64,000 nucleotides of DNA from Pseudomonadales bacterium (lineage in GTDB: Bacteria; Pseudomonadota; Gammaproteobacteria; Pseudomonadales; Azotimanducaceae): the NCBI GenBank assembly GCA_965267275.1, contig OZ253950.1:121333-185332 (forward strand), written 5' to 3'. The notes beneath the pieces were generated by a model, which saw only the letters and a program-made list of their open reading frames with translations, was not told where the DNA came from and ran no database searches. Made by a program: the position numbers and the translations under genes. Below, in pieces: positions 34,566 through 36,363 of the stretch (position 1 is its first letter; each line of letters starts with the position of its first letter).

Positions 34566-35825
34566 CTAATCCCGGCTTCGTTCTGAGGCCCTAAAGCGCG
34601 AGTTTTCCCTGTTAGCCATCATAGTCTCCTTAAAGCGGGTGATATCTGCGCTGATCTCTTGTTTCTTACGCTCTTTGAACTGCTCTAAGCGATCGCTGCG
34701 AGCGCCAAGGGACCGGCGGGCTTCAAGTTGCTCGAATATCAGCGCGTCACGCTCTTTCTGATCGCGATTCTGCGCTTCTAAGAACTCCGCTTCATTTTGT
34801 TTTTTGATCTCCCGGCGTTTGCCTGAGATCGCATCAAAAAGCCCGAGCAAACCCTTTCGAAATCTCTCCTGGCGCGTCCGCGCTTCATTTTGCGCGCGCG
34901 TCTCTTGCCGCCAAATAAAATCAGCGCGCAGTCTTTGTTGTTCTTCGATTAAGTCTTTTCGTTTTTCTTCGATGAGCTTTTGCCGCTCACCTATTTTATA
35001 AGCGCGCTCGGCCTGCAGTCTTTGAAGCCGATTGCTCACCTGATTTACCAGCTGATTTTTTGATTCAGCAACGCCCGGTAAGTCTTTGGGATCACCTAAT
35101 TTTACGCGGGTTTCTTTGCTCCTGATTCCGGCCCACTTAGAAACCGAATAAACCTCGCCTTGTAGGTCAACCGCCACGAAGCCGCGCCGGTCTCCTCTGG
35201 CCAGGATATAGCCCTTATCCTTTAGGGCGCGTTCAAAGCTTTCCCGCCCATCGCTTACTGCCCAGCTTTCGGCAAAAGCGGCCTTGATCTCTTTGGGTGA
35301 TTGCTGGGTGCGTTTTGCCTGTTGCCACTGCGCCAAAGTGAAGTTTTCCAGGCTGCGCTCGGTTTCTTGAACAAAGCCTCTTGGCATCTGCCAGCCATGT
35401 TCGAGATAGAGCTCTTTAGAGATATCCATCAGCTTGCGCTTGGTATGCGAAAGCTGGATGGCTTTCATGGCCTTAGCGTCTATTCGCGACCAGACCGCAT
35501 GGGCATGACGCCTCCCTTCTTTTTCATGAAAGACAACGGCGCGTGGCTGGTTATCAAGGCCGAGTTTCTTTTCGACTCGATCGACTGCTTCTTCAAACGC
35601 CACAGTCTCAACCCGTTGATCTGGGGGCGGGTTGAGGCTGAGGCTAAATAGAAACTGCTTTGCTTTGGTTCCCCGGCTCAGCGCATAGGCTTCATTGAGC
35701 GCCGAAGGCAAGTCGGGCGAAACAAAGCCTCGAAGTTCATGGATTTCCACATGATCGTTTTCATCTTTGAGAAGATGAGCAGCCAGGTTCCTTGCCCCGC
35801 CGCGCTGATTGCCCTGGAGGATCAT
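34566..35825 (-). CDS. Relaxase (MOBP/VirD2-like)
   Basis: FSLSLNPP, HEKEGRRHAHAVWSRID (3H motif), coiled-coil C-terminus; ATG 35825 overlaps the mobC stop. Confidence 0.85.
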   Translation of the reverse strand: MILQGNQRGGARNLAAHLLKDENDHVEIHELRGFVSPDLPSALNEAYALSRGTKAKQFLFSLSLNPPPDQRVETVAFEEAVDRVEKKLGLDNQPRAVVFHEKEGRRHAHAVWSRIDAKAMKAIQLSHTKRKLMDISKELYLEHGWQMPRGFVQETERSLENFTLAQWQQAKRTQQSPKEIKAAFAESWAVSDGRESFERALKDKGYILARGDRRGFVAVDLQGEVYSVSKWAGIRSKETRVKLGDPKDLPGVAESKNQLVNQVSNRLQRLQAERAYKIGERQKLIEEKRKDLIEEQQRLRADFIWRQETRAQNEARTRQERFRKGLLGLFDAISGKRREIKKQNEAEFLEAQNRDQKERDALIFEQLEARRSLGARSDRLEQFKERKKQEISADITRFKETMMANRENSRFRASERSRD

Positions 35826-36259
35826 TTTTCGTGCCCGGGCCGTAAGCCGAGCGCGATAAAGAGACAATCACGCATGGCAAGAACGGCTTGAGCGGCTTCT
35901 TCAAGCTGGGCCTCAACGTCGTCCCTGACATCGATTGTTCCGATATTGGCCGACTTTGCGAGCTGATTGAGATTCGAGCTCAGCCTGGAGCGGCCTAACT
36001 CTGCCAATACTTGGGCAAGTTTCTGTTCATCCACGCGCGGCTTTCGGGATTTGCGCCGCTTAGTGGCATCCTCACCGAAAAGCCGTTCCCGAATGAATGC
36101 GCCAAGGGGTTGATTTCCAGCCTGGTCTTCGAGGATCTGCCGTTCGCGCCGTGAGAGCCGCAGAGAGAAGGGCGCGGGTCTATCCAGCTCTGGGTTAGGC
36201 TTGCAGGCTGCTTCGTTGAAGTTAGTGCGATATGATTTAGGTGTTGACGGAGCGCTCAT
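35822..36259 (-). CDS. mobC: Mobilisation accessory protein MobC
   Basis: RHH-like FSLRLSRRERQIL, LAELGRSRLSSNLNQLAKSAN; AAGGAG RBS. Confidence 0.85.
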   Translation of the reverse strand: MSAPSTPKSYRTNFNEAACKPNPELDRPAPFSLRLSRRERQILEDQAGNQPLGAFIRERLFGEDATKRRKSRKPRVDEQKLAQVLAELGRSRLSSNLNQLAKSANIGTIDVRDDVEAQLEEAAQAVLAMRDCLFIALGLRPGHEK

Positions 36260-36363
36260 TATGATGGCTCCTTAAATGAAGGGACCTCAGTGGTCAGATA
36301 GTCGTTCCATTCTTGAAGAGTTTCAAAAAGGTGGTTCGAGGTTTGTCCCTCTAGGTCCACCAT
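36259..36363 (-). other. Orphan in-frame 34-aa tail predicted to become the integrase C-terminus after excision
   Basis: MVDLEGQTSNHLFETLQEWNDYLTTEVPSFKEPS*; begins exactly at the attR core (ATGGTGG); its TAA overlaps the mobC ATG. Confidence 0.7.

Follow-up and report, generated by a model that had tools for sequence, protein, structure and literature searches.

Excision of a tRNA-Met-associated serine recombinase element in a Pseudomonadales bacterium is predicted to assemble its mobilization genes into a coupled unit

The DNA analyzed here, a window of 64,000 nucleotides (nt) of contig OZ253950.1 (assembly GCA_965267275.1, positions 121,333 to 185,332 of the forward strand) of a Pseudomonadales bacterium of the Azotimanducaceae, harbors an island of 21,116 bp (window positions 15248-36363). 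This island is probably an integrative mobilizable element (IME) whose attP lies within the last codons of its large serine recombinase (LSR) gene, whose excision builds a coupled p99-LSR-mobC-relaxase unit, and whose relaxosome is produced mainly or only from the excised circle. An earlier note on this DNA had claimed that circularization fuses the integrase open reading frame (ORF) to a short tail and places mobC and the relaxase gene in one coupled unit. That claim is now supported by evidence of selection on the tail, by frame continuity in 24 of 25 relatives for which both element ends were paired, by an overlap of the tail stop with the mobC start in 48 of 53 loci, and by a relative (L028) in which a fused form was found. 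Operon assembly on excision is well supported as a prediction from sequence comparison, and we infer, in addition, the silence of mobC and the relaxase gene while the element is integrated, read-through across attP, and the location of the promoter involved; relaxosome expression would then be tied directly to the excised state, with no dedicated regulator involved.

The recombinase gene when integrated and its predicted form on excision

The features of the window on which this reading is based are as follows.

15170-15246, plus strand: tRNA-Met(CAU) gene, the integration target, intact when the element is integrated (ARAGORN; Rfam tRNA, 74.7 bits)
15203-16759, minus strand: LSR, integrated isoform of 518 amino acids (aa) (Pfam Resolvase and Zn_ribbon_recom)
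15241-15247: attL core CCACCAT, comprising the tRNA CCA end and one further base, from comparison of attL, attR and the empty site
34566-35826, minus strand: relaxase with a MobA/VirD2-like nuclease domain (Pfam PF03432, 3.2e-15)
35822-36259, minus strand: MobC/NikA-like relaxosome accessory protein (weak Pfam matches; next to the relaxase gene in 66 of 71 loci)
36259-36363, minus strand: 34-codon tail and stop, the LSR C terminus in the excised (attP) state only, holding the mobC ribosome-binding site (RBS) at 36268-36273
36332-36363: attR, consisting of the core at 36357-36363 and a P-arm half-site, whose T-loop-like CTCGAAC lies 5 bp further out than its tRNA counterpart
36364-36581: host flank, with the hairpins downstream of the tRNA and a probable fossil att-like unit, both also present in the empty site of genome G001

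When the island is integrated, the LSR reads ...GGGNVG-MVGPPGLEPGTNGL*, where MVGPPGLEPGTNGL represents the last 14 residues and corresponds to antisense tRNA. Joining of the island ends at the core in silico produced a single ORF of 538 aa, ...GGGNVG-MVDLEGQTSNHLFETLQEWNDYLTTEVPSFKEPS, which ends in ...FKEPS and precedes mobC, whose frame is the next one. The two isoforms (518 and 538 aa) diverge after ...GGGNVGMV. attP lies within the integrase gene, and integration replaces the C terminus of its product, as is likewise the case in 24 of the 25 paired relatives.

The assignment of this enzyme to the LSRs is based on its Resolvase domain, a Recombinase/zinc-ribbon C-terminal half, a short core, and a 5-bp motif shift between att sites. 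Its catalytic domain matches PF00239 (Resolvase; 6.7e-21, residues 8-154) and its zinc ribbon PF13408 (Zn_ribbon_recom; 2.2e-9), while PF07508 (Recombinase) is seen in close LSR homologues and in P0037 and is unreported for the island LSR at E<=0.01. Every LSR homologue in the databases terminates in M(V/A)xxxG(I/F/L)EP..., an antisense-tRNA ending, and the whole family is, therefore, taken to reside at tRNA 3' ends and to have been recorded in the integrated state only. A search with the last 84 residues retrieved only integrated-state LSRs with such an ending, the tail alone yielded no match among 5.8 billion proteins, and PLSDB plasmids, which were searched for a circular form, contained no close LSR relative, the best match having 37% identity over part of the protein.

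At the opposite end of the island, the chain of overlaps described in the earlier note was reproduced throughout. The tail ORF MVDLEGQTSNHLFETLQEWNDYLTTEVPSFKEPS occupies 36363-36262, and its stop (TAA, 36261-36259) overlaps the mobC start (ATG, 36259-36257) to give TAATG; the mobC RBS (AAGGAG, 36273-36268) lies inside the tail, 8 nt 5' of the ATG; and mobC in turn overlaps the relaxase gene, the mobC TGA at 35824-35822 and the relaxase ATG at 35826-35824 forming ATGA. This ATG is the likely start of the relaxase, because homologues align from residue 15 of the longer ORF that begins with TTG. The MobC-like product matches Pfam families below their curated cut-offs (NikA-like, 6.3e-5 and 23.5 bits against a cut-off of 27; MobC, 7.4e-4 and 20.4 bits against 23.2), and its genomic position and conservation beside the relaxase would fit a MobC/NikA role.

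According to the same note, the backbone genes all share the minus strand but are divided between the island ends, and this holds: the genes for the LSR, p99, p94, the type IV coupling protein (T4CP), a 39-aa ORF, p105 and an XRE-type protein are found at the left end, with mobC and the relaxase gene at the right. It had also observed that only attR and strong hairpins (36367-36544) precede mobC in the integrated state, and the DNA in question indeed proved to be host DNA with four strong hairpins (fold z = -6.25), shared with the G001 empty site. Across relatives, what lies upstream of attR belongs to the host and varies from one host to another. A promoter scan detected no sigma-70-like promoter in 35700-36900. 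The gene arrangement is that of Tn916-type expression, in that mobC and the relaxase gene have no upstream element DNA of their own while integrated and acquire co-oriented genes upstream in the circle. In the modelled attP joint no clear intrinsic terminator was detected, only a weak tRNA-like hairpin followed by TTTTT.

Conservation of the tail and of the joint

Relatives were gathered as 71 loci through a relaxase search (relaxase identity, 37-76%), 66 of them with a MobC match. They derive mostly from Alpha- and Gammaproteobacteria, with one Nitrospirales and one Verrucomicrobia metagenome-assembled genome. The tail motif, LFxxLxxW(N/E)xxL, occurs directly upstream of mobC in 54 of the 66 loci, a count made with a relaxed motif regex. 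In 48 of 53 loci, the stop of the tail and the start of mobC overlap; the overlap measures 4 nt (ATGA) in 31 of these, 20 nt in 13, 17 nt in 1 and 1 nt (TAATG-type) in 3.

A codon-level test covering 47 distinct tails revealed that, within the motif block, all six Leu codons occur at the three conserved Leu positions and both Phe codons are used, while Trp is invariant and third positions are free; such codon freedom shows selection at the level of the peptide. The ten preceding codons (M-V/A-R-L-E-G-E-T-S-N) are conserved at the DNA level (GTG 17/17, CGC 17/18, TCG 24/25 and AAC 33/33), as would be expected of an att half-site.

Both element ends were recovered for 24 loci, including this window, and for L067. 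With the core chosen automatically as the longest one, 23 of the 24 pairs have LSR and tail in the same frame across the joint, as does L067 (24/25 in total); the exception, L039, harbors two tandem att-like sites, and the tail-adjacent site is in frame. On these counts, both frame continuity (24/25) and stop/start overlap (48/53) exceed chance. The paired elements occupy tRNA genes of seven types, namely, tRNA-Arg (9), Thr (6), Ser (3), Met (2), Leu (2, with L067 in addition), Phe (1) and Ala (1), and the shared core starts at the terminal CCA of the tRNA in all pairs. This core measures 6-10 nt, apart from that of L018 (20 nt), which stems from a relic of an older LSR end alongside. Two phases of the joint occur; in L018 and L033, the phase-2 elements, the joint offers no start codon, yet the tail is conserved and in frame. 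In the long-tail relatives L017, L019 and L021, a 30-codon insertion keeps the frame.

In L028 (Kordiimonas, G070:C4 73188-104350), p123, LSR, tail, mobC and relaxase are contiguous, LSR and tail share one frame, and an ATGA overlap leads into mobC. The locus was considered as a free attP form, and this was rejected, as it represents a tandem-array joint at one tRNA, with the element's own LSR 26 kb downstream. Tandem arrays are to be anticipated if attL can serve as the target of an incoming element, a behavior which fits the unconserved tRNA-distal host arm. A minimal element of 4.4 kb at tRNA-Leu in L067 (Sphingobium, 6438-10853) comprises the tail, mobC, relaxase, one ORF, p123 and LSR. 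Out-of-frame LSR pieces located 5' of the tail in L057 and L073 were likewise considered and set aside: they are relics that belong to the other phase, and the group's true LSR (L052) is in frame.

Proposed course of events and points against it

While the element is integrated, the LSR unit would be expressed at some level, with its transcript running into the antisense tRNA and the bidirectional rpoD terminator. In this state the LSR ORF ends after 14 junk residues, and mobC and the relaxase gene lie 21 kb away, behind host terminator hairpins only. Excision at CCACCAT would restore attB and produce the circle, in which the LSR ORF would cross the attP arm into the 34-residue tail and end on the mobC start codon, p99, LSR, mobC and relaxase then forming a chain of overlapping, translationally coupled genes. 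MobC and relaxase made from the circle would nick a putative oriT, and the element would exit via the pore of a helper, using its own coupling protein. Integration in the recipient would truncate the LSR again and uncouple or switch off the relaxosome genes.

A number of observations weigh against this scheme. No full-length LSR-plus-tail protein was found among the 5.8 billion database proteins, and the L028 form, the only fused LSR and tail seen, involves an older, upstream LSR that is a pseudogene with two internal TAG stops. No attP or attB joint was present in the metagenome contigs of the four runs with the island, an absence which says little, as Logan contigs drop rare variants; the island was also absent from all RNA runs searched. 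No promoter of the LSR unit was located, and a strong intrinsic terminator (19139-19113, minus strand) is positioned 13 nt before the T4CP ATG. Inside the tail, reading by eye revealed a weak promoter-like pair (TTGAAA-17-GACTAT, 8/12 matches) that falls below the scan threshold, and mobC possesses its own AAGGAG, so that it could be translated from any transcript reaching it. Among the relatives, L067 has the same layout with a gap of 85 nt between the tail stop and mobC, and L074 carries its LSR divergent from mobC; in view of these two exceptions, coupling is regarded as a rule of the family and not a law. As for the terminator, its position after the 39-aa ORF suggests controlled read-through into the T4CP-p94-p99-LSR unit.

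Alternative explanations

The fusion may mainly serve the recombinase, in that the 538-aa isoform made from the circle would differ in activity from the 518-aa form (for example, by being integration proficient or excision blocked), while coupling to mobC would be secondary and mobC-relaxase would have an expression route of its own. The Mx8 intP/intX pair provides a precedent for an integrase C terminus that is changed by integration. The peptide itself speaks for such a role, as LFxxLxxWxxxL resembles an amphipathic helix and is under amino acid selection, which is more than translational coupling needs, and as the motif is kept in L067 despite the distance of its tail stop from mobC. However, the overlap of the tail stop with the mobC start is itself conserved, which indicates that coupling is also selected, and we consider it unlikely that the fusion mainly serves the recombinase.

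It is improbable, in our view, that the island is a fixed fossil which no longer excises and whose arrangement is a relic of a once-active family. The missing attP and attB joints and an island read depth similar to flank depth in the four runs would be in keeping with this, but the limited weight of a joint absent from such contigs applies here as well, the backbone ORFs are without exception intact, both ends carry an identical core, and an empty site exists in the same genus.

Least probable of all is that the tail represents an independent leader ORF, translated in the integrated state from an NTG at the junction and loading ribosomes onto mobC, with a promoter in or near attR and the LSR frame match an inherited coincidence: 22 of 24 pairs do have an NTG (ATG, GTG, TTG or CTG) as their junction codon, a consequence of the TGG that the tRNA CCA end gives on the minus strand, and the weak -35/-10-like pair lies inside the tail, but the base before TG and any Shine-Dalgarno sequence come from host DNA and vary between hosts, the junction ATG of the window is located at the foot of a strong hairpin, and the two phases, the missing start codon of L018 and L033 (in which the tail is nonetheless conserved and framed with the LSR) and the frame-keeping insertions of L017, L019 and L021 argue against independent initiation.

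Island boundaries and attachment sites

The island ends were set independently, through GC content, tRNA position and the G001 empty site. The island has a GC content of approximately 0.50, versus 0.57-0.63 in the flanks, and lies directly 3' of the intact tRNA-Met(CAU) gene, with rpoD upstream of the tRNA. In G001, a genome of the same genus, the site is empty and contiguous across CCACCA|TGTC, the order being rpoD, the tRNA, CCACCA|TGTC, and then the same hairpin-rich DNA that flanks the island here. The 7-bp core CCACCAT is common to both junctions and identical at 15241-15247 and 36357-36363, and the crossover is placed within it by this comparison. Direct repeats longer than the 7-bp core, of the kind sought for a tyrosine integrase, were not found at the island ends; only a short shared core is present because the integrase is an LSR.

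The sample that bears the island represents a mixed community, in which the main strain is present at 30-50x and a second, G001-like strain at 2-5x (runs X1-X4, window 36487-36768).

In attL, a T-loop motif (TTCGAAC-like, coding strand) starts 18 nt away from the tRNA end, and in attR its distance to the core is 23 nt; this shift was observed in 21 of 21 measurable pairs, as measured on the tRNA-side arm only; no clear outer motif was apparent in the other arms (P' and B'). For the LI integrase, Rutherford et al. described a zinc-ribbon-domain motif that is 5 bp nearer the center in attB than in attP (PMC3783163). Given the 5-bp shift, the P arm is viewed as a stretched copy of the tRNA acceptor/T-arm, and it encodes the E-T-S-N part of the tail.

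The 3' end of the tRNA-Met gene (15233-15246) forms a perfect 14-nt palindrome, TGGTGGGCCCACCA. In the downstream hairpin, a T-loop-like CTCGAG approximately mirrors the T loop across the CCA end. attB at tRNA-Met may, on this basis, be pseudo-symmetric.

A second unit of 125 nt (36457-36581) was entertained as the true attR and rejected, since it is present in the G001 empty site and nowhere else in the genome. Two hairpins come after its P-arm-like TGGTTCGAGGTTGGTCC...GACCA, and it shows 80% similarity to the actual attR unit; an earlier element probably left it behind as a fossil attR.

In several genomes of the same genus, the orthologous tRNA(CAU) is interrupted in its anticodon loop by approximately 260-300 nt. 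Such split matches occur in G002, G004, G005, G013, G017, G020 and G022, as well as in G014 (L010 1232-1492), where the insert matches the Rfam group I intron model with 73.2 bits.

Other backbone genes and cargo

The remaining annotated features of the island are listed below.

16756-17055, minus strand: p99, a small acidic protein; its stop overlaps the LSR start; no Pfam match
17192-17476, minus strand: p94, a small ORF with an AGGAG RBS
17487-19100, minus strand: T4CP, VirD4/TraG-like (Pfam T4SS-DNA_transf, 1.3e-28, and TraG-D_C)
19165-19284, minus strand: 39-aa hydrophobic/membrane ORF, MAKYEKVGSGSYGVYKKKSDAGVVFAWVAIGIFVIAVLA, upstream of the T4CP terminator
19680-21062, minus strand: 460-aa protein with a C-terminal XRE-type helix-turn-helix (Pfam HTH_3, 3e-16)
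21639-34515, plus strand: cargo, comprising hsdM, hsdS, a PDC-S02 nuclease-like gene, hsdR, a YgjP-like gene and Hachiman HamA/HamB (Pfam, PADLOC)

p99 is encoded directly upstream of the LSR in 23 relatives and represents a candidate recombination directionality factor (RDF). Its family (search with protein P0039) comprises 684 clusters (50% identity) at E<=0.001, and one of the matches is a protein of 1859 aa with 15 stretches of the p99 core (residues 27-69), that is, a tandem-repeat version. The conserved core of p99, EFLETLWN-MM-FVDIGFG (16759-17055), resembles LFETLQEWN of the tail, with a different Leu-Trp spacing; this likeness is a weak lead, which may reflect mimicry between the candidate RDF and the tail or may be due to chance.

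The T4CP is likely to start at the ATG at 19100, just past the terminator. A further minus-strand backbone ORF, p105, is located at the left end, where the XRE-domain protein is a candidate regulator of the backbone. Between hsdS and hsdR, the cargo harbors a PDDEXK/NucS-like gene (25466-26407) that matches the PADLOC candidate defense family PDC-S02 (1e-155); Hachiman HamA/HamB is located at 30237-34515. LSR, relaxase, MobC-like protein and T4CP are all present, and no mating-pore (VirB/Trb-type) genes were found among the island ORFs; it is for lack of these genes that the island is classified as an IME.

Comparison with known systems and significance

In Mx8 (intP/intX) and SSV1, attP is situated within the integrase gene, and integration alters or splits the coding sequence. 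These are viral tyrosine recombinases, and they are not known to be coupled to a downstream mobilization operon. The integrases of A118/LI, phiC31, Bxb1 and SPbeta are similar to the island LSR in their domain set, short core, 5-bp attP/attB motif shift and small upstream partner gene (here a candidate RDF). In contrast to these phage enzymes, the island LSR targets tRNA 3' ends, employs the T loop as its outer motif, and has attP inside its ORF, and its sequence similarity to LSRs of solved structure is confined to the catalytic domain.

According to the account of Celli & Trieu-Cuot 1998 given in PMC5812530, promoters at one end of Tn916 read through the circle joint into the transfer genes, which are expressed only after excision. 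The island resembles Tn916 in that excision joins the genes of one end to transfer genes of the other. Tn916, however, is conjugative, uses a tyrosine recombinase that does not target tRNA genes, and achieves only transcriptional coupling, whereas in the island, which is mobilizable and not conjugative, the recombinase ORF crosses attP and is predicted to be translationally coupled to mobC. In ICEclc, an outward-facing promoter, Pcirc, is fused to the integrase gene only in the circular form (PMC5812530); there the integrase gains expression, while in the island the integrase unit would be the donor and the relaxosome genes the recipients.

Tn4451 and Tn4453 are mobilizable, encode the large serine recombinase TnpX, and form a circular intermediate with a 2-bp crossover (PMC5704250). 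Unlike the island, they are Firmicute elements of low target specificity, with neither a tRNA target nor a tail. The tnpX promoter is reportedly formed at their joint, as Lyras and Rood are said to have described in 2000, so that the joint would make a promoter and not an ORF fusion.

A 2017 review of IMEs lists serine-recombinase IMEs from Firmicutes only, which insert within genes, and no published description of a tRNA-targeting serine recombinase family with a tail was found in the searchable literature. The principle is already known, and it is the combination of an LSR, a tRNA target and translational coupling which seems to be undescribed.

Mobile elements must avoid nicking oriT within the chromosome and must time their transfer after excision. 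If the reading proposed here is true, such timing needs no regulator, since the product of recombination would itself build the operon and the reading frame.

A bolder extension, which we hold to be possible though doubtful, is that the recombinase senses the state of its own DNA: only the circle would encode the tailed isoform, which would be integration competent or excision blocked, while the tail-less isoform together with p99 would constitute the excision form, the joint would also switch the relaxosome by translational coupling, and all of this would extend to a very large proteobacterial family of serine recombinases with tRNA targets. In that event, directionality would be written partly into the substrate. 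The two natural LSR isoforms offer, in any case, an experimental handle on the directionality of serine integrases.

The comparison defines a large family of serine recombinases that integrate at the CCA end of tRNA genes, of which at least seven kinds are used, with the T loop as their outer motif, a habit of tRNA-end targeting which is normally ascribed to tyrosine integrases. As its elements carry defense cargo (in this window a type I restriction-modification system and Hachiman), the family is likely to serve as a vehicle for the exchange of defense islands in marine Alpha- and Gammaproteobacteria.

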